Below, piece by piece: positions 13,679 to 55,449 of a DNA stretch of 64,000 bases. This DNA comes from a virus, in the IMG/VR virus record IMGVR_UViG_3300008952_001422, positions 32,001 to 96,000 of that record; one strand, given 5' to 3'. Each line of letters begins with the position of its first letter. The stretch's first letter is position 1. Made by a program: the position numbers and the translations under genes. The notes beneath the pieces are model-generated. The model was given only the letters and a program-made list of their open reading frames with translations, did no database searches and had not been told where the DNA came from.

Positions 13679-13987
13679 ATGAATATGACAAAGAAAACAA
13701 CAAATTGGATTTGGTTAGCACCAGAATATTTCAGCAGATGGAGACTATTTCCTAGAGCATTCATCTCTATGTACATCTATTTGTTATATGATGTAACGCA
13801 TTGGTTCATGTTGTTGCCCGAGCCAAACTCACAACAAGCAGGATTAGTATCAGTTTTAGTAGGTTCAGGCGCGGCATGGTTTGGATTATATGTAAATTCA
13901 AATTCTACTAAGTATGAAACACTTGAAGCGACCAGTACAACTGTAAAAATGGAAGATAAAAGAGATAAAAAGAAAAAAGATGAATAA
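13679..13987 (+). CDS. small two-TM membrane protein (holin-like)
   Basis: Two hydrophobic segments and a highly charged C-terminal tail. Confidence 0.5.
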   Translation: MNMTKKTTNWIWLAPEYFSRWRLFPRAFISMYIYLLYDVTHWFMLLPEPNSQQAGLVSVLVGSGAAWFGLYVNSNSTKYETLEATSTTVKMEDKRDKKKKDE

Positions 13988-14465
13988 AAGTAACTTCAAA
14001 TATCATATTAGACTGAAAATGGCTAGCGAACTAGAGAAATCGGATATTAGCGGTATCATTACCGTTCTTAAAAAAGCAATAGTGAACATATTTCAACCAC
14101 TAGAAGATGGAACAGCAGTGATATATCACATGGGTGATGAGGCGATGAACTCACATATCTACGATTTTAGACTAAATCGTGGAGTTACAGAAGCAGAAGC
14201 AGAAGTTATTTTAGGTCTAATCACAGATTGGACTGATAAAGATTTTATTATGGAGATAACAACCAGCGAAAATTATGAAGAATTTGGTGAATTTGATGAT
14301 GAAATAGACTTAACTTCAATGAAACATAACAGGTGGATGGCAGACAAAATCGACAAAGGATGGAGATATGGTCTAAAATACAACAAAGAAGACAAAGTAG
14401 ACCCAAGATTACAGCCATATCAACAATTAACAAATAAGTTGAAAAATACTGACAAAACCACTTGA
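13980..14465 (+). CDS. RyR-domain protein
   Basis: HNRWMADKIDKGWRYG...K.DPRLQPYQQL matches the RyR repeat pattern (H..W...K...GW.YG......HP.L.PY..L). Confidence 0.75.
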   Translation: MNKSNFKYHIRLKMASELEKSDISGIITVLKKAIVNIFQPLEDGTAVIYHMGDEAMNSHIYDFRLNRGVTEAEAEVILGLITDWTDKDFIMEITTSENYEEFGEFDDEIDLTSMKHNRWMADKIDKGWRYGLKYNKEDKVDPRLQPYQQLTNKLKNTDKTT

Positions 14466-15064: not shown

Positions 15065-15385
15065 ATGATTTTTACAGAGAATGCGGCTGAACGAGTCAAA
15101 GAAATCATTACAGAAGATAAAGAAGATGTAAAAGCACTAAGAGTGTTTGTTCAAGGTGGCGGTTGTCATGGTTTTAGTTATGGATTTGGATTTGAAAATG
15201 ATATAGCAGGCGATGATACAGTCATTGAAACAAATAATGTAAAATTAGTAGTAGATAGTATGAGTATTATGTATCTAGCAGAAGCAACAATAGACTTTGT
15301 TCGCAGTCTTGAAGGCGAACGTTTCACAATAGATAACCCATCCTCAAGAACATCTTGTGGTTGTGGTTCAAGTTTTTCAATGTAA
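15065..15385 (+). CDS. erpA: A-type Fe-S cluster carrier (ErpA/IscA family)
   Basis: LRVFVQGGGCHGFSYGF and C-terminal SCGCGSSF carry the three ligand cysteines. Confidence 0.9.
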   Translation: MIFTENAAERVKEIITEDKEDVKALRVFVQGGGCHGFSYGFGFENDIAGDDTVIETNNVKLVVDSMSIMYLAEATIDFVRSLEGERFTIDNPSSRTSCGCGSSFSM

Positions 15386-15399
15386 AAGGAAATAATATA

Positions 15400-15636
15400 A
15401 TGTCAATAGCAGAAAATGTATTCGAGGTAGTATCAAGACAATTAAAATTTGAACTTAGTGACTTATCATTAGAAACTGATTTAAGAAAAGATTTAAATGC
15501 TGATAGCATTGATTCCGTTGAAGTAATCTTTGAACTAGAAGATTTATATAACATCACAATTGAAGATGAGGTTGCAGAAGAATTACAAACAATTGGTTCT
15601 ATTGTAGATGTTATCACCGAACTAACAAGCAAATAA
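15400..15636 (+). CDS. acpP: acyl carrier protein
   Basis: 78 aa acidic protein with DLNADSIDSVEVIFELED (phosphopantetheine Ser) and I.DE.AE.L.TIG; start at 15400 after AAGGA. Confidence 0.9.
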   Translation: MSIAENVFEVVSRQLKFELSDLSLETDLRKDLNADSIDSVEVIFELEDLYNITIEDEVAEELQTIGSIVDVITELTSK

Positions 15637-30916: not shown

Positions 30917-33900
30917 ATGAAACTGACACAACTTATAGAAACCAAAGAACGTCTTTACGTTTGCGTTCATGCTAAAACTCCAAAGCATGAAGTTTACGCA
31001 AAATCATCTTATGATGCGGCAAAACAAGCGGCTGAGTATTGGGGTATGAAATCTACAGCAGGCATTGATGCACATTTGGCAGAAGACAATCAGCCTGAAC
31101 CACGTAAGATGCAAGTAACACAAGCAGACAAAGATAATAATACTGAAGCCTGGAAACGTTTTAGAGCAGGTGACCCAAGATATGAATGGAAAGATATGAT
31201 ACTTTCCAAAAAAGAAGGTGATGTATCAGAAGCAGTTGGCGAATTTGCACAACCAATTTATGATTTAATTGATGACTTGGGTGGTGATAATGATGCACAT
31301 GAAATCGTATTAAACGATATGGTTCGTTACTTAGGTGGTGATACTATTCAAGATTTTGTTAAAGACTTTAGAAGTAACCATGATATGAATCATCCAGGTG
31401 AAGATGGCGATTACGGTGAAGATGATAAAAACTTTGAATCAGTAAAAGAAGCAACACATGGTGAAGCCAAACCAATTTATGATTTAGTTGGTTCATTAGG
31501 TGCAGGTGATATTGAATTAGCACAGAATCCTGTATTTCAAGATTTAGTTCGTTTTTTAGATGCTGATACTATTAATAAGTTTGTAACAGACTTCCGTAGA
31601 AAGATGGCTAAAGATAAAGATTTCAAAGGTTCAGTTGATTTTGGTCAATATAAAGAATCATTTAATGATGAAGAATATAATGATGAAGAAAGGGCTGGAA
31701 TGGAATATACTGTATGGGTTGGTGGTACTGAAGTTAATGACAAGTGGCTAAATTACGAAGAAGCCAAAGAGTTATATGACTTATGGAGAGCCAAAGGTTA
31801 CGATGACGTTCAACTAGATGCTCGTTTAAAAGAAGGTTCATTTTGGGGCAGAGATGATATGGTTGCTCAAATGAAAAGAGATGAACTAGCGGCAGGAATG
31901 AGAAAGTACACAAAAGATGTTGACGGCGTCCATAGCGGTTCGACTACTTCTGACCCAGAAGAATGGAAAAGATTAGAAGCAGATGGTTACGAATGGGATA
32001 AAGATTATTATAAAGATATAGAAGAATTAGAAGCAAGATGGAAAAAGAAACACGTCAAAGGAGAATCACGTACAGATGAATGGGCATTTGTGGCTCCATT
32101 AGCCGGAGTTGCCGGAACCGCGGCAAGAGTAGTTGGAAGCGGTCTCGGAAGAGCGGCAATGCGAGGAGCGGTAGGTGGAATGGTTGGTAAAGCCGTAAAA
32201 AAGGCAGCCAGTCTAGGCAGTGATAATGCAACAAAAAGCGTTAGATATGGAACAACAAGCACTTTACCGACAAGTAGTAGCATTGAAAAATTTAATGACC
32301 TTAATGCATCTAAGAAACCAAAAAAGAATGCCAAAAAATTAAACGCAGTTAAAGAAAAACAAGAAAAGACAGATGATTTATTAAAAGGATTTGACCCTAA
32401 AACTGCAAGAGCATTAATGATGTTGAAAACAAAATATCCTCAAGCAGATAATGTTCTTTCGGCTCTATTAGCAGATGTTGAAAATAATGAAAAAGATAGT
32501 GATGTTGCCGATTTGACACAAGGTCATAATATTGAGAAATTAAAAAAAGCAGTTGATATCTTACAAAAAGAAATCAATCTTTTGAAAGTGGATAAAAAAA
32601 GAAATGCAGTTAAAGAAAAAGCAAAGCCAGACTTTTTAGACCTTGACAAAGATGGCAACAAGAAAGAACCAATGAAAAAAGCAGTTAAAGATAAGAAAAA
32701 AGTAAGTGAAGACTTAGATGCTGTTTCCAAAAAAATCATAAAAAAACTAAGACAGAAAGCAAAAGATGATTATGATAAAGGCCGCCCGATAGCAAAAAGA
32801 AAGTCTGATAAAGAAATCATAAAAAAACTGAGACAGGACGCAGATGATGATATCAAAGCCAGGGACAAACGTAATAGAAAAAGACATCCCGAATGGTTTG
32901 AAGCATATAATCCTGAAACAGGAAGAGACCCTAATAAGCCTACACCAGAATGGGACAATCTTATTGCAAAAGCAAAGAAAAAGCAAGGTATCAGTGACGA
33001 AGAAGAAGTATGGTTTAATTATGAAGACATTGGTGGAAACATAATTGTTAATCCTAAGTCAACTATAGAAGACCAGATTGGTGAACTGTTAAACAGATAT
33101 TATGACATTAGTCCAATGGAATTTGACCCTAGTAAAATAGAAATTACAACTCCAGACCAAACAAATCAAGATGCAAATTTTGCCAAAACTCAAAATGCAA
33201 GAAATACACCAGTTCAAGAGGATAAATATTCTGACCTGAATCCTACTAATAAGTTTGGTTACTTTGGTGGACCAGGATTCTATAGTAATGATGGCAGTAC
33301 TTATACTGAACCACATTATGATGATTTTGATATCAGACAACACAACAGAGATAATCCTGAAGATAAAATCAAACTTAATAATTGGGCTGATTTTAATCTA
33401 AAAATGAGTTATCATAAAAAGGATGGTAAAAGAGTTCAAGGATTTGGTGGAATGGGATATAATGTTTCATTTCACGGCAATCCAAAAGATGTAGAAGCCT
33501 TTGCTATGCAACATTTAGATGCAGAACGTTACTCAGGTGATAATATTCCTGAATCAGAATCTTTACCGCAACAGGTATCACTTGCAAGTTCGTTGATAGC
33601 ATCAAGACAAGCAAAAAGAAATGAAGTTAAAAAAGTTAGAGAAGATGAAGAAGCAGTAGCGGCTAGAGATGAATTTATGAAAGTTATGGATATGAAACCA
33701 AAAGGTGGTTTAAAAGATATTCCAAAAGCAATCGACACAATTAAGAAGATTGTAGCAGACAAACAAAATCAACAAGTAAAATTTGACGATGGCAAGATGA
33801 GAGTAGATTTATACACAGCATCAGCAGTATCAAAAGTATATGATGCAGTTAAGCCAGAAACACAAGAAAAAATTGACGATATGTTAAGAACTAAAGAAGG

Positions 33901-38550: not shown

Positions 38551-38580
38551 TTGACAAGTGGTTCTAAATTATGTTATAAT
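38551..38580 (+). promoter_or_regulatory. sigma70 promoter
   Basis: TTGACA-N18-TATAAT with extended TG. Confidence 0.75.
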
Positions 38581-43455: not shown

Positions 43456-44202
43456 ATGAATTGTTACATATTCGATGTAGATGGTACACTTACTCCAAGT
43501 AGAGATGAAATCAATAAGGATTTTCTAAAGTGGTTTTTGGAGTTTGTTAAATGGCATCCAGTGTACCTAGTTACAGGAAGCGATAGAACTAAAACAGAAG
43601 AACAAATTGGTGAAGAACTATTTAAAAAAGTAAACTGTGTATATAATTGTTCAGGAAACACAAAACACAAAAAGGGTGTTTGTGTATTCAATACTAAAGA
43701 TTTCAAATTAGAAGACAAACCACAAAAGTTCTTAGAAAGAAAATTACGTAATAGTGATTTTGATATTAAAACTGGATTTCATTTTGATTCTAGACCAGGA
43801 TTATTGAACTTTAGTATTGTTGGCAGAAATGCCTCGAAGACTGAAAGAAAAAAGTATGTTAAGTATGACACATCAACTAATGAACGAGAGTTAATTTCTA
43901 ACAAATTCAATAAACTGTTTTCTAAGAAATTTGGTATTGTGTCGCAAATAGCAGGTGAAACTGGATTAGATATTATAAAGATAGGAACGGATAAGGCACA
44001 AATATTAAAAGATTTCACATTCCAAGATGAACTGATATTCTTCGGTGACAATATACAACCTGGTGGCAATGATTATGGAATTGCACAAGTAATTGAATAT
44101 GGTCCCTATGACCGTACTGAGGTTCATCATGTAAAGAATTGGAAAGAAACATGGAAGATACTTAAAAAATATGATATACACGAAAGAAATAGTAAAAGAT
44201 AA
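43456..44202 (+). CDS. HAD-IIB phosphomannomutase (eukaryotic PMM-type)
   Basis: FDVDGTLT, VTGSD, LNFSIVGRNA, FFGD....GGNDY. Confidence 0.85.
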   Translation: MNCYIFDVDGTLTPSRDEINKDFLKWFLEFVKWHPVYLVTGSDRTKTEEQIGEELFKKVNCVYNCSGNTKHKKGVCVFNTKDFKLEDKPQKFLERKLRNSDFDIKTGFHFDSRPGLLNFSIVGRNASKTERKKYVKYDTSTNERELISNKFNKLFSKKFGIVSQIAGETGLDIIKIGTDKAQILKDFTFQDELIFFGDNIQPGGNDYGIAQVIEYGPYDRTEVHHVKNWKETWKILKKYDIHERNSKR

Positions 44203-45251: not shown

Positions 45252-45617
45252 GTGAACAAGATTGAGTTAATAACTTATATTAACGAAAATACAACTGGAA
45301 AAATAGCAGGCAGAAAAGAAATCACTCTAAGTGATATATTCATAAGTACTCTACCCAATCAATTCAGAGTTTCAGCACTGGGTCGAAATATTCTCAAAAA
45401 ACATTTCAAAATATATAATATAGAGATAAAATCAGAAATTGCTATAGGTACAGGTAATCAAATACTTGCACTTGATAAGTATCTAAAAACTCCCTATTAT
45501 CTAAGAAAGTCTAAATTAGTCTTATTTGAAGAGGTTCCAGCCGCAGAATTGCTGATGATTGACGGTGATATAGACCTCTGGACCGAAAATAAGACATTTT
45601 TTAACCCAAAAACTTGA
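45252..45617 (+). CDS. hypothetical protein
   Basis: GTG start directly after the previous stop. Confidence 0.55.
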   Translation: MNKIELITYINENTTGKIAGRKEITLSDIFISTLPNQFRVSALGRNILKKHFKIYNIEIKSEIAIGTGNQILALDKYLKTPYYLRKSKLVLFEEVPAAELLMIDGDIDLWTENKTFFNPKT

Positions 45618-45641
45618 CAGATATCGAATATATGCTATAAT
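45614..45641 (+). promoter_or_regulatory. strong early sigma70 promoter
   Basis: TTGACA-N16-TATAAT with extended TG. Confidence 0.8.
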
Positions 45642-45672: not shown

Positions 45673-46803
45673 ATGAATACTAAAGTATCAACAAACGATT
45701 TAGATGTAAGAGTTGTCAGACCTAGTGATGTTAGGGCTGAACTTAACTATGCATTTAACAGAAAACGACCTGTATTTATTTGGGGTCCTCCTGGTGTTGG
45801 TAAATCAGAAATTGTAGATAGTATCACACAAGAAAGGTCAGGTTTTATGATTGACCTTAGACTTGCTCTGATGGAACCAACTGACTTAAGAGGTATTCCT
45901 TATTTCAACGAAAAAAATGGTACAATGGAATGGGCTACCCCTTCGGATTTACCTAGTCAAGAATTAGCAGACCAATATGAGTCCGTTATCTTATTTCTTG
46001 ACGAAATGAACCAAGCACCGCAATCAGTCCAAGCGGCGGCTTATCAGTTAATTCTAAACAGACGATTAGGTTCGTATGTTTTACCAGACAACGTTTTAAT
46101 CGTTGCGGCTGGAAACAGAGAGAGTGATAGAGGTGTTGCTTATAGAATGCCTTCACCACTTGCTAACAGATTTGTTCACTTAGAAATGGGTGTTGACTTT
46201 GAAGATTGGCAGACTTGGGCATTAGAGAATAAAATTCATTCTGATGTTGTAGGTTTCTTAACATCTAACAAGATGGACTTATTTAACTTTGACCCTAGAA
46301 CGGCTTCAAGAGCCTTTGCTACTCCAAGAAGTTGGACTTTTGTTTCAGAAATGTTACCAAAAGAAGGCGAAGAAATCAGTGATAGCAGGTTACACGACCT
46401 AATTGCTGGTACAGTTGGTGACGGAGTTGCTACCAAGTTCATGGCTCACAGAGCCATTTCTGGGAAGTTACCTGTTCCTGCTGATATTCTGAATGGTAAA
46501 GTTAAAACACTTTCTGTCGAGGCTAAAGAAATTTCAGCAATGTTTTCATTAACAACTTCATTATGTTATGAGTTGAAAGACTTTGTTGACAGAAACGGTA
46601 AAAAGAAAATGGACGAGTTGTACAAAATGGCTGACAACTTCTTCAATTTTATGATGGAAAACTTCGATACTGAAATGACAGTATTGGGTGGAAGAACTGC
46701 TCTTAAAGTTTACAAGTTACCTCTAGAACCTAGAAAAGTACCTTGTATTGAGAAGTTCTTCAAAAAGCATGGGAAACTTATTATTGAGGCCCATAATGCA
46801 TAA
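45673..46803 (+). CDS. MoxR-type AAA+ ATPase
   Basis: GPPGVGKS, LFLDEMN, AAGN, PLANRF, TPRSW. Confidence 0.9.
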   Translation: MNTKVSTNDLDVRVVRPSDVRAELNYAFNRKRPVFIWGPPGVGKSEIVDSITQERSGFMIDLRLALMEPTDLRGIPYFNEKNGTMEWATPSDLPSQELADQYESVILFLDEMNQAPQSVQAAAYQLILNRRLGSYVLPDNVLIVAAGNRESDRGVAYRMPSPLANRFVHLEMGVDFEDWQTWALENKIHSDVVGFLTSNKMDLFNFDPRTASRAFATPRSWTFVSEMLPKEGEEISDSRLHDLIAGTVGDGVATKFMAHRAISGKLPVPADILNGKVKTLSVEAKEISAMFSLTTSLCYELKDFVDRNGKKKMDELYKMADNFFNFMMENFDTEMTVLGGRTALKVYKLPLEPRKVPCIEKFFKKHGKLIIEAHNA

Positions 46804-46833
46804 ATCTCAATAATACATAGTAATAACCACTCG

Positions 46834-46878
46834 AAAAGAGGGATGTCTATTGACTTCCCTCTTTTTTTATGGTACAAT
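46834..46878 (+). promoter_or_regulatory. terminator hairpin with embedded sigma70 promoter
   Basis: aaaagaggga...tccctctttt stem; TTGACT (46850)-N17-TACAAT (46873). Confidence 0.7.
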
Positions 46879-46884
46879 GATACT

Positions 46885-48264
46885 ATGATATTTGATACCA
46901 TAAAGCAGATGGCTCGGGACCACGGGTCAAAGACGGCTCTTGTCTGCAAGGATAAGCAATATACCTATTCTGAACTTATAAAAAGTGTAGAAAAACTGTC
47001 TGCCATTTTATCAACTGCTATAAAACCTGGTGAAAAAGTTCTGTTTGCAAGTGAAAAAGAATATCACTATGTGAGAATGGTACTTGCTTGTGATATCTTA
47101 GGTATAACATTCATTCCAACTCATCCTAATCTACCAGAAGATTACTTATTTGATATTGTCGAAGCCTGTAAACCAGACCATGTTATAATGAATGAGAAAG
47201 ATGCATTAGAACTAAAACCCCACAATAAAGGTCTAGTGTATTCTAAAAACGAGAACTCTATCTATACGGTATTATTCACAAGTGGCACAAGTGGTACTCC
47301 ATCTGCGGTTACTCACTCCGCCGCCGCCTGTATGTTTGGATGTTTAAATAGTATTTCAATACACGATTTATCATCTGATGATGTAATATTATCACAACTT
47401 CCTCCATCAACGATTGCAGGACTATACTTATATGCACTCCCAGGATTACTTAAAGGTGCTACTGTAATTATTGAAAAGTTCGAACCAAGACGATATATAG
47501 AATTATGTAACAAATGGAAGCCTACTATCGGCACAATGGTACCAGCAATGATACTTGCTTTACAAAAAGTTCGTAAATGGAAAGATTATAGTATGTCACA
47601 TTATCGACAGTTGAGTATTGGCAGTACCGCAATTACTAATGAAGTAATTGACTTATTGTTTGATAAGGGAGTTCCACTTGTTAGACATCTTTATGGATGT
47701 ACAGAAACACACGTACCTGCACTTACATATCTTATTGAACCCGATACTAAACACAAATTGCAACTGTCAGTATCACAATTTTATGAGCATAAATTAGATA
47801 GATTTGGTGTATTGTGGTTGAAAGGACCAACAGTAACAAAACGATACTTGAATAGTGAAGCAACCGTTATTGATGCCGAAGGATATTGGTGTACTGGTGA
47901 TGTATTTGAGAGAGAACATAACGAGTTAGTATTTAAGACACGAGAGAAAGATTTGATTAACGTAAATAGTTTCAATGTGTCACCGGTAGCAGTAGAGAAC
48001 GCCATCCTTGCTTGTGATGGAGTAGATGAAGTATGTGTTACATATAGAGAACGAGGTCTTGGAGAGAATGAATTAGTAGCCGTCATACGAAGTACTGATA
48101 AAAGAATGAATAAATACTACATAACAGAACAAATAAAGACAAAGTTAATGCACTACGAATTGCCTAAAGATATCATTATTGTGACAGAAGATTTGCCACG
48201 AAATGCAATGGGTAAAATTAAAAGACACACAGTAAAGAAGACATTTTGTGAGAAGGAGGATTAA
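46885..48264 (+). CDS. ANL-superfamily adenylate-forming enzyme (acyl-CoA/acyl-ACP ligase)
   Basis: FTSGTSGTP, YGCTE, TGD, PRNAMGKI; start placed at MIFDTIKQ. Confidence 0.9.
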   Translation: MIFDTIKQMARDHGSKTALVCKDKQYTYSELIKSVEKLSAILSTAIKPGEKVLFASEKEYHYVRMVLACDILGITFIPTHPNLPEDYLFDIVEACKPDHVIMNEKDALELKPHNKGLVYSKNENSIYTVLFTSGTSGTPSAVTHSAAACMFGCLNSISIHDLSSDDVILSQLPPSTIAGLYLYALPGLLKGATVIIEKFEPRRYIELCNKWKPTIGTMVPAMILALQKVRKWKDYSMSHYRQLSIGSTAITNEVIDLLFDKGVPLVRHLYGCTETHVPALTYLIEPDTKHKLQLSVSQFYEHKLDRFGVLWLKGPTVTKRYLNSEATVIDAEGYWCTGDVFEREHNELVFKTREKDLINVNSFNVSPVAVENAILACDGVDEVCVTYRERGLGENELVAVIRSTDKRMNKYYITEQIKTKLMHYELPKDIIIVTEDLPRNAMGKIKRHTVKKTFCEKED

Positions 48265-50010
48265 ATGAAATCTAAAGTTAAAAGTATTGTCGTAGTTGGT
48301 GGCGGTGTAGGTGGCTGGTTCTCAGCGGCTTGGATGGCAGTGAAACATCCTAATATCAAAGTAACCCTTATTGAAAGTGATAAAGTTGGAATTATAGGAG
48401 TAGGCGAAAGTACGTTGCCTCAACTGGGTACAATGATGAAAGAGATTGGATTAGAAGAAAGAGATTGGATGACCCACACAAATTCTATTTACAAACTAGG
48501 TAATAAATTTGTTGGTTGGAACATCGAAGGCAAACGTGACCATGCAACTAATCATTTTTGGTGTTCACGATGGGACGAACAATATTATGGTTTCTCTTAT
48601 GCACTACCTGAAAAGAAAATTACATCAGGTCTATATCATCCATTAGAAAAGGAAGACCTATTTAGAAATTCTAAAGGGCAACCTGGCGTTGATGATAAAT
48701 GGAACGATTATTGGTTACAGTTATTACGTGACGGTCGTAAGAACCAGTGGGAAATGGCACAAGATATGCAAGAAGGAACATATCTTATGGATTATAATAA
48801 GGCGCCGTATGATTGGGATGATAATTTATTAGTTGGCACTTGGCAAGGTGTTACATATCATGTTGATGCAAATAGATTTCCAGAAATAATCAGAGAAAAG
48901 GTTGCAATTCCTCACGGTGTTAATCACATACATGGTCATATCAATGATATTAAGAAAGACGATGATGGTTATATTACCTCAGTTGTTACCGAAGAAGGTG
49001 AAGAGTTTGAGGCTGATTTATTCCTTGATTGTACTGGTTTCGCCCGAGTACTAACAAAAACAATGAATGTAGAATGGATACCGATGCCAGAAATAACAAC
49101 TACAAGTTTAGTTGTTGCACCAATAAAATACAAGGATGTAAAAAAAGAATTTCGTCCATACACTATGAGTAATGCAATGGATGAGGGATGGTTATTTGTT
49201 ATACCATTGTATAATCGAATGGGCTCTGGATACGTATATGATAGTAGCGAGATATCTAAAGAAGATGCAATGAAGAAATATAAAAAGTATTGGGAAGGTT
49301 ACGAATTTATCCAAGAACCACAACATATGTCCTGGGATGCAGGAAAGTATAAAACTCAATGGAATAAAAATCTTGTATCAATTGGCATGTGTGGTTCTAT
49401 GATTGAACCGATGGAAGCAAACATTCTTGGCATTGCTCAAGCAGGATTTCAATTATGTAGTAATTTAATTTCTCGTGCAGAGGAAAAAGACGAAGTTATT
49501 GGTAGAGGTTCACTCCACGCATACAACAGGAACATAGATTGGTTAGTTGAAACAATTAAACGATTTATTTTATTTCATTATACATTAACTGAAAGAGAAG
49601 ATACTCCATTCTGGAAGAAAATGAAACAAATGGGTATTGACGAAAAACATAAAGAAGCATGTTGGAGAGAATATAGGATACCTGCCAACAATGCTGAATC
49701 AGGAGTTCCAGATTTTATGTGGGCGATGATGGCGGTTGCTATGAATAAGTTCGATGATGATATTAAACTAAACACAAAACCACATCTAATGGAACAAGCA
49801 AATGAAAAATTCTCTTGGCTTCGAACATCAAGCAAACGAAATGGTGTGAATGCACCAAATGCCTATGAGTGGCATAAGAAGGTACTCTTTAGCAACAAGA
49901 CACATGATGAAGTCCTTCAGGAGAATCTTAAAAAATATTCAAAGATTGTTAAAACTAAGGGAAAGGTAAAGTCATCCTCCAGCGGAACAATTACCTCACC
50001 TGGAAATTAA
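48265..50010 (+). CDS. flavin-dependent halogenase (tryptophan halogenase family)
   Basis: GGGVGG FAD motif, GVGESTLP, K-L-G-N-K-F catalytic-Lys region, DCTGF, GWLFVIP (WxWxIP variant), IEPME. Confidence 0.85.
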   Translation: MKSKVKSIVVVGGGVGGWFSAAWMAVKHPNIKVTLIESDKVGIIGVGESTLPQLGTMMKEIGLEERDWMTHTNSIYKLGNKFVGWNIEGKRDHATNHFWCSRWDEQYYGFSYALPEKKITSGLYHPLEKEDLFRNSKGQPGVDDKWNDYWLQLLRDGRKNQWEMAQDMQEGTYLMDYNKAPYDWDDNLLVGTWQGVTYHVDANRFPEIIREKVAIPHGVNHIHGHINDIKKDDDGYITSVVTEEGEEFEADLFLDCTGFARVLTKTMNVEWIPMPEITTTSLVVAPIKYKDVKKEFRPYTMSNAMDEGWLFVIPLYNRMGSGYVYDSSEISKEDAMKKYKKYWEGYEFIQEPQHMSWDAGKYKTQWNKNLVSIGMCGSMIEPMEANILGIAQAGFQLCSNLISRAEEKDEVIGRGSLHAYNRNIDWLVETIKRFILFHYTLTEREDTPFWKKMKQMGIDEKHKEACWREYRIPANNAESGVPDFMWAMMAVAMNKFDDDIKLNTKPHLMEQANEKFSWLRTSSKRNGVNAPNAYEWHKKVLFSNKTHDEVLQENLKKYSKIVKTKGKVKSSSSGTITSPGN

Positions 50011-50627
50011 TGAACGTTTTAGAAACCTGGATAGGTGCTGACAATTTAGAATTCAAGTTAGTTGAATATACTCCTAGCATACTGGGTGATGTTCAGGCAT
50101 TTTGTGAAGCCTGTGCGGCAGAAGGTATTGAAAATAACTCCAGTTTACAAGAAATGAAGTTTGGTAAATGGGGTGACTTAGAACAATGGCACATGGTATA
50201 TCATGGTGATAAAATTATTAGCATAAGTGGGTCGCATTATTATCCACATTTTCATAAAGATTGTTATAGAATAATGTATCGAATGGCTACATTGAAAGCA
50301 TATCGTGGGATGGCAAGTGAGAAGATATCCCTTAGAAAAATGCAACACAACTTTTGCTTTAGAGCAATTATGCCAGCACAAGTTGATTGGTGTTTAACAA
50401 AAGGAGCAACTGAAATTATCGCAACTACTAATTCGCCAGATAATATCGATTATGGTGGGACGATGCATAAGGTTCATAATCACGGACGTAGACGCAGACC
50501 AAATACTAAATCTGATAATATGACATTAATTCAGAAAGATGCTGATGTTTACAATACAAAACAAGATATTTGGAGAGTAAATGTTAGAGATTTTGCAACA
50601 GGTAAAAAGATTAAATTTAAGAAATGA
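50010..50627 (+). CDS. putative GNAT-fold acyltransferase
   Basis: YHGDKIIS.SG strand followed by RMATLKAYRG (motif A-like). Confidence 0.5.
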   Translation: MNVLETWIGADNLEFKLVEYTPSILGDVQAFCEACAAEGIENNSSLQEMKFGKWGDLEQWHMVYHGDKIISISGSHYYPHFHKDCYRIMYRMATLKAYRGMASEKISLRKMQHNFCFRAIMPAQVDWCLTKGATEIIATTNSPDNIDYGGTMHKVHNHGRRRRPNTKSDNMTLIQKDADVYNTKQDIWRVNVRDFATGKKIKFKK

Positions 50628-51775
50628 CAGTATATATTAACGCAATCAGTGGATTAACTCCCTTTGGTAATTTAGACCAAACATGGAAAGGCATAACAGA
50701 TAATAAAGTATGTTATAGTGAACTAAGAAAGTTTCCATGGGACAAATATACTAGGTCTAAAGTTGCAGGTGAAGTGAAATTTAATGCCGAAGATTATTCT
50801 AGTATATCTGAAAGAGACCGTGAGAAGATGCCAGAGTATATGCAATGGGCATTAGCATCAGCACAGGAACTATTAGATGGTAAAGAGTTAAACAAAGAAA
50901 GAACTGGTGTAATGGTTTCATCAGCATTAAGTATGCACCTTGAGACTTTAAGGGCTAATGAAAAAGATGCAGGTAACACTTTCACTTTTACACCAAACAT
51001 GATATCTAATAATATTAACATTCAATATGGATTTACTGGTCCTAGTACTATGACTTCTAGTGCCTGTTCTACAGGAATGTATAGTGTTATTATTGGATGT
51101 ATGTTAATAGAAACTGGACAAGCAGATAATATAATTGCTGGTGCATTTGATGATTCCGTATCACCAGATTCCTATAAACAGTTCGGAAAACTTAGGGCAT
51201 TATCTACAAAATTCAATAATACTCCAGAAAAGGCATCTCGACCTTGGGACACAAAACGTGATGGATTGGTACTTAGTGAGGGTGGAGCAATGTTCTTATT
51301 ATCTAATGAGAAGACATCAGAGACATTGGCAGAGATATCTGGTTACTCCATGAACAATGATGCTTATCAAGTCGTGGCACCTCATCCTGAGGGGATTATG
51401 ATAGAGAAATGCATGAAAGATACGTTAAATGGACGTATTCCAGACTTAATTAATGCTCATGCCACATCTACTCCTATGGGCGATTATATTGAAATAGACG
51501 CACTTAATCGGCTTGGACTACAAGATGTATGGGTAACTGCAAATAAGTCGCAAATAGGGCATCTCATGGGGGCGGCCGGGGCTATGGAGTTGGCTTTAAG
51601 TGTACTATCATTGAAACATGGTGCAATAACTCCGTCATTAAATATAGATTACTTAGAAGATGGCTACAACATAAAGTATACTCCAACCACCAAGAACTAT
51701 ATGGTAGATTCAGTTCTATGTAATAGTTTCGGATTTGGTGGTGCAAATGCAAGTATTTTACTGTCTAAAACTTGA
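50624..51775 (+). CDS. fabF: beta-ketoacyl-ACP synthase (FabF-like KS)
   Basis: SSACSTG (Cys), INAHATST (His), KSQIGHLMGAAG (His), NSFGFGG. Confidence 0.9.
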   Translation: MTVYINAISGLTPFGNLDQTWKGITDNKVCYSELRKFPWDKYTRSKVAGEVKFNAEDYSSISERDREKMPEYMQWALASAQELLDGKELNKERTGVMVSSALSMHLETLRANEKDAGNTFTFTPNMISNNINIQYGFTGPSTMTSSACSTGMYSVIIGCMLIETGQADNIIAGAFDDSVSPDSYKQFGKLRALSTKFNNTPEKASRPWDTKRDGLVLSEGGAMFLLSNEKTSETLAEISGYSMNNDAYQVVAPHPEGIMIEKCMKDTLNGRIPDLINAHATSTPMGDYIEIDALNRLGLQDVWVTANKSQIGHLMGAAGAMELALSVLSLKHGAITPSLNIDYLEDGYNIKYTPTTKNYMVDSVLCNSFGFGGANASILLSKT

Positions 51776-51799
51776 CAGGATTAACATTTGTGTTATAAT
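51772..51799 (+). promoter_or_regulatory. strong early sigma70 promoter
   Basis: TTGACA-N16-TATAAT with extended TG. Confidence 0.8.
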
Positions 51800-51822
51800 T
51801 ATATCATAATTCAATAAAAGTA

Positions 51823-52629
51823 ATGGATATGATAGATAAATCAAAAAAACACACTTATATAGACTTTGAGGACTCAAAAGTAGTCTTATACTTTAGTAAG
51901 TATAATTTTACTGGTTCTGAAAAAACACTCAAAGATATGCAGGACAAGGATTCTCCTCACGTTTTTACTAAAACTGAGGTATTAAGTGCATCGATAATTG
52001 CAGATAAATTCAATGATAAGTATGTGAAATCTTCTGGTGCATTTGATATAGTTGAGGGCGAGTTTATGAAGACTGCTTTCAGTAATAAAGATATTTTGAT
52101 AGGAATTCTGACCAATTATCGTCATTTGATTACAAATAAAACATATCAGGAAGCAAAAGAGATAATGGCATATCTTGAGGATAAGTTTGCATTTAAAATT
52201 CTTGCTGATAATTTAACTGATTTTGAACATGGAATTGCTAAATTTCTGGCTGATGATAATTCATTGAGTAGTCACACATTGGGAATTGCCGCATATATTC
52301 CTACTTATTATGCAACCCATACAAAAAGTGATGAACTTAAAGATAGAAGTACACAATCTGGTCACTTAGGTAAGATAGGTGAAAAAATTACTACTGAAAT
52401 TGAGATACTATCATCAAAATATCTAGCAGAAACTCAATTTGGTGGGTCAGGTTATATGGTTAATGCTATCACAAGTGATAATCATAGATTATCTTTTTTC
52501 ACTGCAAATGAAGATATAGCAAACAGTAAAAAGAATGTTAAGGTTTCTTGTAAGATAAAATCTAAAGGAACCGCTTGGAAAGACGATAGTGTCAACGAAA
52601 CCAGGGTAAATTATGTTAAATTTGCTTAA
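51823..52629 (+). CDS. hypothetical protein, possible C-terminal OB fold
   Basis: SGHLGKIGEK...KIKS......ET.VNYVK C-terminal pattern. Confidence 0.55.
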   Translation: MDMIDKSKKHTYIDFEDSKVVLYFSKYNFTGSEKTLKDMQDKDSPHVFTKTEVLSASIIADKFNDKYVKSSGAFDIVEGEFMKTAFSNKDILIGILTNYRHLITNKTYQEAKEIMAYLEDKFAFKILADNLTDFEHGIAKFLADDNSLSSHTLGIAAYIPTYYATHTKSDELKDRSTQSGHLGKIGEKITTEIEILSSKYLAETQFGGSGYMVNAITSDNHRLSFFTANEDIANSKKNVKVSCKIKSKGTAWKDDSVNETRVNYVKFA

Positions 52630-53064: not shown

Positions 53065-54384
53065 ATGACAACTGTTACGAATGAAAAAGAATTAGACAAA
53101 GCATTAGACGATGTTTTGTCTGCTAACGGTGTTGAGATAGATAATACTCTTCCTGCTCCAGTAGTATTCGATTATACTGATGAAGAAGTTAAAGAGATGA
53201 TTGTAAGTAGTCGAGTTAGACTTCTTATTAGACATCCATTTTTTGGTACACTTGCTACTAGACTTAAAATGGTCGAGGCAGAATGGTGTCCAACTGCCGC
53301 AACTGACGGTAGACATTTTTATTATAATTCAGATTTCTTTAGAACTTTAACTCCTGAAGAAATTGATTTTGTTGTTGGTCACGAAGTTATGCATTGTGTT
53401 TATGAACATTGTGGTGAGTTCGGTAGATTAATGGACAAAAAAGAAGAAGACCGAGATATGAAACTTTGGAATATTGCGGCTGACTATAAAGTTAACCAAG
53501 CATTAGTTGAGTCCGGTGTCGGTACTATGCCGAAACAAGCATTACACGATAGAAAATATTACAGAAGTTATACAGAAGAAATTTACGAACATCTTAAAGA
53601 ATCTGGTGAGGCTGAGGATAAACAAACATTAGACGTTCATATGTTTGGTGATGGTGATGAAAAAGGTAAAGAAGGTGAGGGTAATGACCCAACTGGAAGA
53701 AAAGCACCTATTAAAGTTTCACCTCAAGAAGCCCAAGCGATTAAAGACCAGATGAAACAAGCAGTATTACAAGCGGCTCAATCAACCGATGCAGGAACTC
53801 TTCCTGGCGATATCAAAAGAATTATAAGTGGTATGACTAATCCTAAAATGGATTGGAGAGAACTTCTTAATATCTCTATTCAGAGTTTAGTAAAAAGTGA
53901 TTTCACATTTATGAGACAATCTCGTAAATCAAAGTCAATGGGAATTTATCTTCCAGGTCAAAAGAATGAAGATAAGATTGATGTTGCAATTGGTCTTGAT
54001 GTTTCAGGTTCTATTTCATCTTCAATGATTGAAGAATTTCTTGGTGAAGTTCACGGAATTATGCAACAGTTTCAAGATTTTAAGATTAGAATTTGGACAT
54101 TTGATACACAAGTAAACAAAGAAGGTTATAAAGAATTTGACCCATATAATGCTGACGAACTTAAGAACTACGAGATTGTCGGCGGTGGTGGTACTGATTT
54201 TGAATGTAACTATAACTTTATGAAGGAAAACGATATTACTCCTGATAAGTTTATTATGTTTACAGATGGTATGCCTTGGGATTCCTGGGGTGATGAAAGT
54301 TATTGTGATAGTTTATTTGTTATTCACGGTACTGACCAAATTGTTCCACCTTTCGGTGAACACGCCTATTACAGCCAAGCATAA
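53065..54384 (+). CDS. metallopeptidase plus vWA domain protein (DUF2201-like), MoxR partner
   Basis: TAATDG, HEVMH (HExxH), MIDAS DVSGS, GGGGTDF, FTDG. Confidence 0.88.
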   Translation: MTTVTNEKELDKALDDVLSANGVEIDNTLPAPVVFDYTDEEVKEMIVSSRVRLLIRHPFFGTLATRLKMVEAEWCPTAATDGRHFYYNSDFFRTLTPEEIDFVVGHEVMHCVYEHCGEFGRLMDKKEEDRDMKLWNIAADYKVNQALVESGVGTMPKQALHDRKYYRSYTEEIYEHLKESGEAEDKQTLDVHMFGDGDEKGKEGEGNDPTGRKAPIKVSPQEAQAIKDQMKQAVLQAAQSTDAGTLPGDIKRIISGMTNPKMDWRELLNISIQSLVKSDFTFMRQSRKSKSMGIYLPGQKNEDKIDVAIGLDVSGSISSSMIEEFLGEVHGIMQQFQDFKIRIWTFDTQVNKEGYKEFDPYNADELKNYEIVGGGGTDFECNYNFMKENDITPDKFIMFTDGMPWDSWGDESYCDSLFVIHGTDQIVPPFGEHAYYSQA

Positions 54385-55382: not shown

Positions 55383-55449
55383 AGACTAGTGAATTGTAAA
55401 AATTCATATTATATAATATAAATTTAACAAATGTCAAAGGAGAAATTTT

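Follow-up and report, generated by a model that had tools for sequence, protein, structure and literature searches.

Chloramphenicol biosynthesis pairs an AMP-ligase, cmlK, with a flavin halogenase, cmlS, and gives a halogenated acyl group that ends as an amide. In mycobactin biosynthesis, the roles of MbtM, MbtL, MbtN and MbtK include a desaturating step; among phage enzymes, the halogenase VirX1 has iodinase activity. jamABC and the polyyne cassettes combine a fatty-acid-activating ligase, one or more desaturases and an acyl carrier protein (ACP) (PMC8406139), JamD is a flavin halogenase brominating terminal alkynes (PMC12645471), and the substrates of flavin halogenases are stated to include enolates in addition to arenes (PMC9772203). 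Likewise, SbzI of the altemicidin pathway is a GNAT using a carrier-protein-tethered donor (PMC11685415), the mbt-2 cluster of mycobactin comprises mbtK to mbtN (PMC10667711), and a 10-gene halogenase cluster of cyanophages was predicted by Iyer, Anantharaman, Krishnan, Burroughs and Aravind in 2021 (PMC7824862). Here we analyse a four-gene cassette that resembles parts of these systems and is carried by a virus. It encodes a class I adenylate-forming (ANL) ligase, a flavin-dependent halogenase, a GNAT-fold protein and a FabF-like ketosynthase, and lies in a stretch of 64,000 nucleotides (hereafter, the window) that spans positions 32001–96000 of the 127,031-bp IMG/VR virus record IMGVR_UViG_3300008952_001422 (G000; CheckV completeness 35%).

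Judged from its sequence, the cassette is a real, conserved and apparently virus-specific operon of enzymes predicted to be intact, and represents a variant of known biosynthetic logic with an unusual carrier, a virus. The four genes would constitute one pathway making an amide-linked, probably halogenated acyl compound, a reading to which we assign a probability of about 0.5.

Operon structure and the four proteins

The cassette comprises the following features:

46850–46878, + strand: cassette promoter, TTGACT-17-(TG)TACAAT, 10/12 match
46885–48264, + strand: ANL (class I adenylate-forming) acyl/aryl ligase, 459 aa (PF00501, 1.1e-42; PF13193, 2.1e-06)
48265–50010, + strand: flavin-dependent halogenase of the tryptophan-halogenase type, 581 aa (PF04820, 2.6e-85; phrog_2928)
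50010–50627, + strand: GNAT-fold protein, 205 aa, probable N-acyltransferase (family profile, predicted structure)
50624–51775, + strand: FabF-like elongating beta-ketoacyl synthase, 383 aa, Cys-His-His (PF00109, 5.5e-37; PF02801, 1.1e-24)

The initial annotation placed four plus-strand open reading frames at 46843–48264, 48265–50010, 50010–50627 and 50624–51775 and saw in them a unit behind its own sigma70 promoter. The frames are present as described, and the unit is borne out by the junctions, the promoter match and the conservation in relatives. As read directly at the first junction, the TAA of the ligase gene abuts the ATG of the halogenase gene, with GGAGGA just upstream; the halogenase gene overlaps the third gene by 1 nt (TAATG), which in turn overlaps the ketosynthase gene by 4 nt (ATGA). 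The four genes are translationally coupled. When the promoter is aligned with those of seven relatives, TTGACTT is invariant and the −10 hexamer reads TA(C/T)AAT in all except L005 (TATACT). The alignment with relatives also corrected the ligase start: the ATG at 46843, taken at first, lies upstream of the cassette promoter and is TTG or AGA in relatives, and the conserved start is ATG 46885, so that the ligase has 459 aa and not 473. Since this codon stands only 6 nt past the −10 and no Shine-Dalgarno sequence precedes it, transcription of the cassette probably gives a leaderless or almost leaderless mRNA.

The ligase possesses both the N-terminal AMP-binding domain and the small C-terminal domain. 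The NCBIfam model that it matches best is long-chain-fatty-acid--CoA ligase, where its 192.6 bits fall short of the required 476, and its best PDB matches are the fatty-acyl/feruloyl-CoA synthetase structures 8weu and 8wev (1.9e-27), other matches being 4-coumarate ligases, malonyl-CoA synthetase and FadD13. Taken over both databases, the best matches mix fatty-acyl, feruloyl, 4-coumaroyl, malonyl and o-succinylbenzoyl ligases. In enzymes of this class, the A3 P-loop motif is (S/T)SG(S/T)(S/T)GxPKG, A5 is YGxTE, A7 is (S/T)GD and the A10 Lys is catalytic. The motifs had been described as intact; this holds for A5 (LYGCTETH), A7 (WCTGDVF), A8 (KTREKDLINVNSFNVSP) and the A10 Lys (PRNAMGKIKR), which are conserved in full-length relatives, but not for the P-loop, in which Lys is replaced by Ser. 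Ser or Asn occupies this position in ~24/88 family members, and most others display PKAV. In the search performed the ligase family is phage-only, with 51–99% identity inside it followed by a drop to 27%. Complex prediction for the ligase and the GNAT gave a score of 0.00 against a mark of 0.32, which counts neither way.

By sequence, the halogenase matches the PDB entries of LooH, Thal, PrnA, RebH and VirX1 (1e-52 to 1e-59), and carrier-dependent halogenases are absent from its PDB sequence matches at E<=1e-5. The AlphaFold model, built from a 45-sequence alignment, has a predicted local distance difference test (pLDDT) value of 91.4 and superposes on Thal, PyrH, PrnA, RebH, LooH and VirX1 over ~560–578 columns, with template-modelling (TM) scores of 0.71–0.78 by query length and 0.78–0.86 by target length (0.77/0.85 for Thal); the predicted structure shows the two-module fold, a flavin box and a helical substrate module. 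The GxGxxG motif reads GGGVGG and is retained in each of the four identity groups into which the 119 relatives were divided; the Lys (YKLGN) and Glu (EPMEA) motifs are kept across these relatives as well. K77 and E384, invariant in the 45-sequence alignment and aligned with the Lys/Glu regions of LooH and BorH, are presumably the equivalents of PrnA K79/E346. Thus, the motifs reported as intact are so in the case of the flavin adenine dinucleotide (FAD)-binding GxGxxG and the catalytic Lys and Glu, but WxWxIP reads WLFVIP (definitions of the signatures WxWxIP and Fx.Px.SxG are those of PMC12645471). The three clades nearest to the halogenase all have W.F.I(P/T/S) and EPMEAN. Enzymes of the tryptophan-halogenase type act on free aromatic substrates and are not known to act on carrier-tethered ones. 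On this class attribution, sequence and model identify the halogenase as a divergent member of the free-substrate group, and because it is of the full-length tryptophan-halogenase type by sequence and predicted fold, the ACP-tethered halogenation proposed in the initial annotation is not favoured. The last 20 residues are Lys/Ser-rich and disordered in the model. RNA-library contigs from three runs skip 64–65 nt (window 49944–50009) coding this tail, which is also missing in L001 and L002; the tail therefore appears to be a strain-variable appendage. A flavin reductase (PF01613) was not found in the 127-kb contig, which is 35% complete; reductases of the host could take this part.

Neither Pfam nor NCBIfam gives a match for the third protein itself, and PHROGs returned nothing for it or for the ketosynthase. 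Its relatives number 93 at E<=1e-3 among 1.84 billion representatives, 6/53 of its homologues match PF00583 (best 2.1e-05), and the family profile matches the GNAT structure 3t9y (9.1e-05). A feature search with the protein recovered viral hypothetical clusters only, one of which has PF00583 on 20% of its members. For the predicted structure (pLDDT 89.7), Foldseek yielded 181 matches at E<=0.001, with only GNATs among the matches listed, and the VIA structure search yielded a top Z of 11.7 and 183 chains at Z>=8, the top neighbours being ordinary N-acetyltransferases. The earlier call of an acyltransferase is thus upheld as far as the GNAT fold is concerned, by predicted structure and profile match. 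The offloading chemistry of LuxI and FeeM, which had been suggested along with it, finds no particular likeness here, as both are absent among the structural matches listed and there is no Pfam autoinducer-synthase match; nor does anything tie the cassette to S-adenosylmethionine (SAM) or to the MetK that the initial annotation proposed as its source.

The ketosynthase has FabF 4jga as its best PDB match (8.3e-61), and its score stays below the FabF equivalog cut-offs (269 versus 493.75 bits for TIGR03150; 269.8 versus 387 for NF005589). In agreement with the earlier description of an intact Cys-His-His set, the catalytic Cys, His, Lys and His and the GFGG motif are all present, and ACSTG, NAHATST, NKSQIGH and NSFGFGG are conserved in 89/89 phage relatives aligned. 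The ketosynthase belongs to a phage-only clade of ~95 clusters with 53–99% identity, the nearest bacterial FabFs being 33–37% identical. A tblastn search of phage records found 29 records, all at <40% identity and mostly unannotated or large non-phage-like contigs, and no related operon. A type II polyketide synthase was considered and rejected, as a chain-length factor is missing and the 127-kb contig has one ketoacyl-synt match.

Conservation, variants and genomic setting

The cassette is bounded on both sides by promoters and by genes of a MoxR–VWA pair:

45614–45641, + strand: promoter of the MoxR gene, perfect sigma70 site, 12/12
45673–46803, + strand: MoxR-type AAA+ ATPase, upstream flank (Pfam AAA_5, 8e-08; phrog_1297, 1.7e-97)
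46833–46869, + strand: terminator-like hairpin with U-run (dG −22.4 kcal/mol, z −6.5)
51772–51799, + strand: sigma70 promoter overlapping the ketosynthase stop codon, perfect 12/12 with TG
53065–54384, + strand: VWA/metallopeptidase (DUF2201), MoxR partner, downstream flank (PF13203, 1.1e-37; PF09967, 1.9e-13)

Co-occurrence of the genes in related phages was confirmed, with the same order across related viral loci. The order ligase–halogenase–GNAT–ketosynthase between MoxR and VWA is found in 11/11 distinct IMG/VR contigs recovered by ketosynthase or GNAT search. A wider set of relatives was obtained by a GNAT profile search (75 loci) and by a search with the truncated ligase (three more). 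Wherever the GNAT is >=40% identical, halogenase and ligase accompany it in the same order (23/23 loci), and the ketosynthase is present in 22/23, the remaining locus ending at a contig edge. Identity of the cassette proteins drops to 47–60% with the order unchanged. Furthermore, the ratio of nonsynonymous to synonymous substitution rates (dN/dS) of the four genes against L001 and L003 is 0.09–0.22 (dS 0.3–0.5), all four being under purifying selection. Four architectures can be distinguished:

Architecture A (window type): ligase, halogenase, GNAT, ketosynthase
Architecture B (L010): type A with a desaturase after the ketosynthase
Architecture C (G001, which has direct terminal repeats, and L108): ligase, halogenase, desaturase, GNAT, desaturase, ketosynthase
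Architecture D, reduced (L107:7962-9535 and L115:7962-10435): 342-aa ligase, GNAT 30% identical, no ketosynthase; L115 also has a short halogenase

One of the type C desaturases matches the SCD1 acyl-CoA desaturase (PDB 4ymk, 1.1e-19) and has three His boxes. Because relatives carry such membrane fatty-acid desaturases within the cassette, a fatty-acyl substrate is pointed to; no desaturase homologue is present in the 127-kb contig of the window. Architecture D sits on a backbone near-identical to that of the window (MoxR 94%), and its ligase lacks the C-terminal domain and has a P-loop that has decayed. MoxR and VWA adjoin each other in more distant phages, the gap being <= ~1.1 kb in 13/13 distant loci with both genes, which argues that the cassette is an insertion, and since L107 and L115 hold a replacement on a near-identical backbone, the MoxR–VWA gap appears to be a site at which cassettes are swapped.

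Among the 55 distant GNAT loci, an ANL-like gene lies within 2.5 kb in 31, of which eight (8/31) also have a halogenase, and 24/55 have neither. The ANL-like genes beside these distant GNATs are mostly mini forms of 150–220 aa that start at the P-loop. Since an ANL-like gene is near 31/55 distant GNATs, the ligase-like/GNAT pair is, as judged from these loci, the oldest and widest association, and the ketosynthase is specific to the jumbo-phage clade. Decayed ligases still adjoin the GNAT, and so the pairing cannot everywhere depend on adenylation. In two distant marine phages (L060:4980-9265 and L092:5411-10595), a mini ANL of 212–221 aa starting from the P-loop overlaps the GNAT homologue, a short halogenase (366–390 aa) and an Asp/Asn-hydroxylase-family gene are convergent to this pair, and this whole group lies directly behind a protein with an Mtd_N (tropism determinant) domain.

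RNA contigs from four libraries in three coded studies cover MoxR and parts of the four genes at 90–99% identity. One of them, 755 nt long, bridges the halogenase–GNAT junction and another bridges GNAT and ketosynthase; parts of the ligase gene and 51762–52000 are left uncovered, which is not evidence of silence, and contigs of this kind cannot show transcript starts. DNA near-identical to the window phage was found in marine/seawater metagenome runs of ten coded studies. A DNA-level search of 50,697 deposited phage records returned no match to the cassette. Scanning 185,579 bacterial species genomes with GNAT patterns gave 11 pattern matches, none a relative, although the patterns were few and absence is unproven. 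The ligase pattern scan of 185,579 species genomes gave four loci in which long matches reach at most 27% identity, with 36% along a stretch of 73 residues in L106, and beside these four bacterial loci no halogenase, GNAT or ketosynthase was found, in a scan by one or two peptide patterns that leaves absence unproven. Relatives of the halogenase occur in 65 phage records at 24–33% identity and are common in marine T4-like phages, in line with the initial statement that lone tryptophan-halogenase homologues are known from marine phages. No phage description of this gene combination was found in the main texts of open-licence papers and preprints.

The initial annotation also listed an ACP with an intact DSID Ser at 15400, and Pfam, PHROGs and direct reading of the sequence confirm it:

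15400–15636, + strand: acyl carrier protein, Ser in DSID (PF00550, 2.4e-10; phrog_5934, 3.1e-13)

An AcpS is encoded at G000:C1:9197-9577, on the same contig outside the window, and the complete relative G001 (342,607 bp) encodes three ACPs along with a single AcpS. Records with the ketosynthase cassette all contain an ACP (5/5, G000–G004), and those without the cassette have none (0/6, G005–G010), a tally from fragments (18–74% complete) of related genomes that is a lead and not a statistic. FabD, a FabG-type short-chain dehydrogenase/reductase, FabA/Z and a second ketosynthase are all absent from the 127-kb contig, as are FabD and a type II thioesterase from the complete G001. Lacking a FabD of its own, the phage would thus have to draw malonyl units from the host, and with no thioesterase encoded, chain release could fall to the GNAT alone. 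In the window (15065–15636), the ACP gene directly follows an IscA-type Fe-S assembly gene, which the longest ACP open reading frame overlaps; this pairing is not explained by the cassette. The AcpS gene is flanked, within G000:C1:8372-10802 (locus L017), by genes for a UDP-glucose/GDP-mannose dehydrogenase-like protein, a GreA/GreB-like factor and a cell-wall hydrolase.

At its upstream end, the hairpin at 46833–46869 ends the MoxR unit, and its apical part holds the −35 of the cassette promoter; pairing is preserved through compensatory changes in L010 and L029. At its downstream end, the cassette is delimited on the 3' side by the promoter at 51772–51799, which serves the next gene, 51823–52629. 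This gene has no family assignment in Pfam or PHROGs, and because it has its own perfect promoter and also stands behind the reduced cassette in L107, it is treated as part of the backbone and not of the cassette. The window contains five perfect TTGACA-N16-18-TATAAT sites versus 0.18 expected by chance, at 38551, 45614, 51772 and 52633 on the plus strand and at 55408 on the minus strand, with spacers ending in TG in three; their sequences suggest that this phage has a class of strong promoters for host sigma70. Five relatives share a conserved element of ~70 nt (consensus start AAAAGAATAGCCCACTAGGGGGCTGCC) in the stretch from MoxR to the terminator, located at L001:6190-6260 and at the matching places in L002, L003, L005 and L012. 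The window, L010 and L029 lack this element, which could be an RNA or a small mobile element.

The GC content of the window is ~35% and no tRNA is found in it. The family B DNA polymerase has its nearest counterparts, at 46–48% identity, in Phosso and Atu_ph07, both of them jumbo phages, and the source is therefore taken to be a fragment of an uncultured jumbo phage. Elsewhere the window encodes a eukaryotic-type phosphomannomutase (43456–44202; PF03332, 4.1e-24), as well as a small RyR-domain protein (13980–14465; PF02026, 2.8e-10).

A proposed acyl-amide pathway and its alternatives

From the gene identities, folds, residues, operon, conservation and ACP co-occurrence described above, we infer the substrates, order of steps, carrier, product and biological role of a possible pathway. 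The desaturases of sister phages, the fatty-acyl type of the ligase, the presence of ACP and AcpS, the ketosynthase and the lack of a thioesterase together argue for activation, carriage and extension of a fatty-acyl chain and its release by the GNAT. The ANL ligase would adenylate a carboxylic acid, most likely a fatty acid, and then load it on a thiol carrier, which may be the phage ACP (in its holo form via the phage AcpS) or coenzyme A (CoA). The FabF-like ketosynthase would add one malonyl unit, with malonyl-ACP supplied by the host. Because it is of the free-aromatic type, the halogenase best fits preparation of the amine partner and would modify a free, electron-rich molecule such as tryptophan, indole or another aromatic amine; a less likely target would be an activated chain carbon, that of a beta-keto enolate, an alkene or an alkyne. 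Transfer to the amine by the GNAT would release the chain, and the product would be a halogenated N-acyl amide resembling a lipoamino acid, to which membrane desaturases encoded in the cassettes of sister phages may add unsaturation. In its most specific form, which we regard as tentative and on balance doubtful, the proposal is that a jumbo-phage lineage runs the first known virus-encoded ACP-dependent natural-product pathway, in which the GNAT joins a tailored fatty-acyl chain to a phage-halogenated aromatic amine such as tryptophan.

Several observations weigh against one acyl-amide pathway. The cassette of the window itself has no desaturase, and aromatic-acid CoA ligases are among the best PDB matches of the ligase, so that an aromatic acid substrate is possible. 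The P-loop of the ligase reads TSGTSGTPSAV, with Ser for the usual Lys in its subclade, and departs from the A3 motif; in close relatives the P-loop and the whole C-terminal domain are lost and the GNAT stays adjacent. The acyl-CoA pyrophosphate-binding motif of GNATs, (Q/R)xxGx(G/A) after strand 4, is degenerate (YRGMASE), G100 being invariant in eight close relatives. Two of the three halogenase signatures deviate (WLFVIP for WxWxIP and MIEPMEANI for Fx.Px.SxG), and an enzyme of the free-aromatic type is linked to an acyl pathway indirectly. The ACP lies 31 kb upstream of the cassette, directly after IscA, and may serve other enzymes, and the ACP tally is drawn from genome fragments. Moreover, the RNA-library contigs may hold carried-over DNA, and the product, substrate and activity of the cassette are predictions throughout.

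The same genes could serve to modify macromolecules, the GNAT being an N-acyltransferase of a protein, an envelope glycan or a lipid for which ligase, ACP and ketosynthase supply an unusual donor, and the halogenase acting on Trp of a protein or peptide. Protein acetyltransferases (Naa10, RimI and the PAT GNAT domain, Z 11.4–11.7) are indeed the nearest structures of the GNAT, but they are tied with many small-molecule GNATs (Z 10–11.7), and the fold therefore picks no substrate class. The placement of the cassette between the MoxR and VWA genes agrees with such a role, as does the position of the distant mini-ligase, GNAT, short halogenase and Asp/Asn-hydroxylase-family groups directly behind Mtd_N proteins; capsule decoration is, in Iyer et al. 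2021 (PMC7824862), one option raised for a different cyanophage halogenase cluster. However, a ketosynthase and desaturases are elaborate equipment for tagging a protein, the resemblance of the halogenase to free-tryptophan halogenases extends along the entire protein, and neither a target protein nor a recognition element was identified, which makes macromolecule modification unlikely. Less probable still is that the genes are separate auxiliary functions, with ketosynthase, ligase and ACP boosting or redirecting the fatty-acid or membrane synthesis of the host and the halogenase and GNAT unrelated to them. The ketosynthase is FabF-like (NF005589, beta-ketoacyl-ACP synthase II, 3.4e-80), lone tryptophan-halogenase genes are common in marine T4-like phages and GNAT homologues stand alone in 24/55 distant loci. 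By contrast, a single promoter, coupled stop–start junctions and a fixed order across deep divergence argue for joint function, near-identical backbones have gained, lost or exchanged the cassette in one piece between MoxR and VWA, and the ketosynthase falls below the FabF cut-off in a phage-only clade whose identity goes from 53% inside to 37% outside.

Two further alternatives concern the GNAT, and to both we give very little credence. Pat and AcuA acetylate the catalytic lysine of acetyl-CoA synthetase, and the GNAT could similarly regulate the ligase by acetylating its A10 lysine and have no step in a pathway. Consistent with such regulation, ligase-like/GNAT is the most widely conserved pair (31/55 distant loci), and the structure of the PAT GNAT domain bound to the C-terminal domain of acetyl-CoA synthetase (4u5y) is among those sharing first place in the structure search (Z 11.7). 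That match, however, is tied with dozens of other GNATs, and the pair persists where the A10 lysine is missing, in the 342-aa forms of L107 and L115 and in the mini forms of 212–221 aa; because it outlives the C-terminal domain of the ligase, regulatory acetylation ranks low. As improbable is a LuxI-like synthase that would turn acyl-ACP and SAM into a halogenated acyl-homoserine-lactone signal. LuxI-type synthases are GNAT-related and use acyl-ACP, as this would require, but LuxI, EsaI, LasI and FeeM are missing among the matches listed in two structure searches, which is not an exclusion, and neither the protein nor its 53 homologues have a Pfam autoinducer-synthase match.

Auxiliary genes of phages are mostly single enzymes tuning host metabolism; here, they appear to form a conserved, self-contained operon with carrier-protein support that would combine activation of an acid, extension of the chain, halogenation and transfer of the acyl group. 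If the pathway is real, a virus encodes the making of small molecules or lipids much as natural-product pathways do, a halogenated lipoamino acid might act as an antibiotic against competitors, a signal or a membrane effector during infection, and viruses would join the sources of marine organohalogens or lipoamides. The MoxR–VWA locus would then be a swap site at which variants of such chemistry are exchanged among phages, and the compact system of four to six genes would be directly expressible and assayable. The analysis also brings to light a halogenase clade that has diverged (WxFxIP), a ketosynthase clade confined to phages and a ligase–GNAT pairing that is widespread among phages.

Comparison with described systems

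Among phage systems, the cyanophage cluster of Iyer et al. is similar in being phage-borne, multi-gene and predicted to be biosynthetic with an amino-acid halogenase; it differs in having carbamoyltransferases, a HemK-like methylase, 2-oxoglutarate (2OG) oxygenases and HAD phosphatases and no ANL ligase, GNAT, ketosynthase or ACP (PMC7824862). VirX1 (6qgm) shares family and fold with the halogenase of the cassette (4e-55 by sequence, TM 0.71/0.78), whereas VirX1 and the halogenases of T4-like cyanophages and pelagiphages are 24–33% identical to it and are annotated alone or beside 2OG-Fe(II) oxygenases. The NCBIfam match to CmlS is weak (3.7e-04, 19 bits versus a cut-off of 900), the halogenase being much closer to tryptophan halogenases. 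With bacterial FabF, the ketosynthase shares the thiolase-fold domains, the Cys-His-Lys-His set and GFGG, but it is 33–37% identical to the nearest bacterial proteins and has ~30 residues fewer, four of them deleted from the FFIP loop.

The nearest logic is that of JamABC/JamD and the polyyne cassettes, with which the phages share a fatty-acid ANL ligase, an ACP, desaturases (in the phages, those of relatives), a flavin halogenase and extension by a ketosynthase. By contrast with jamABC, where ligase, desaturase and ACP are co-located, the window has no desaturase and its ACP is 31 kb off; the phage cassette further differs from jamABC/JamD in having no thioesterase or rubredoxin, in its GNAT, in its short ligase (459 aa) and in being carried by a virus, and its halogenase is of the tryptophan-halogenase type. 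Next in likeness come SbzL/SbzG/SbzI and mbt-2, in which a carrier protein receives an acid from an adenylating enzyme and passes it, by the action of a GNAT, to an amine. Although the sequence relationship is at the superfamily level only, the same logic is proposed for the phage cassette, which adds to it a ketosynthase and a halogenase.

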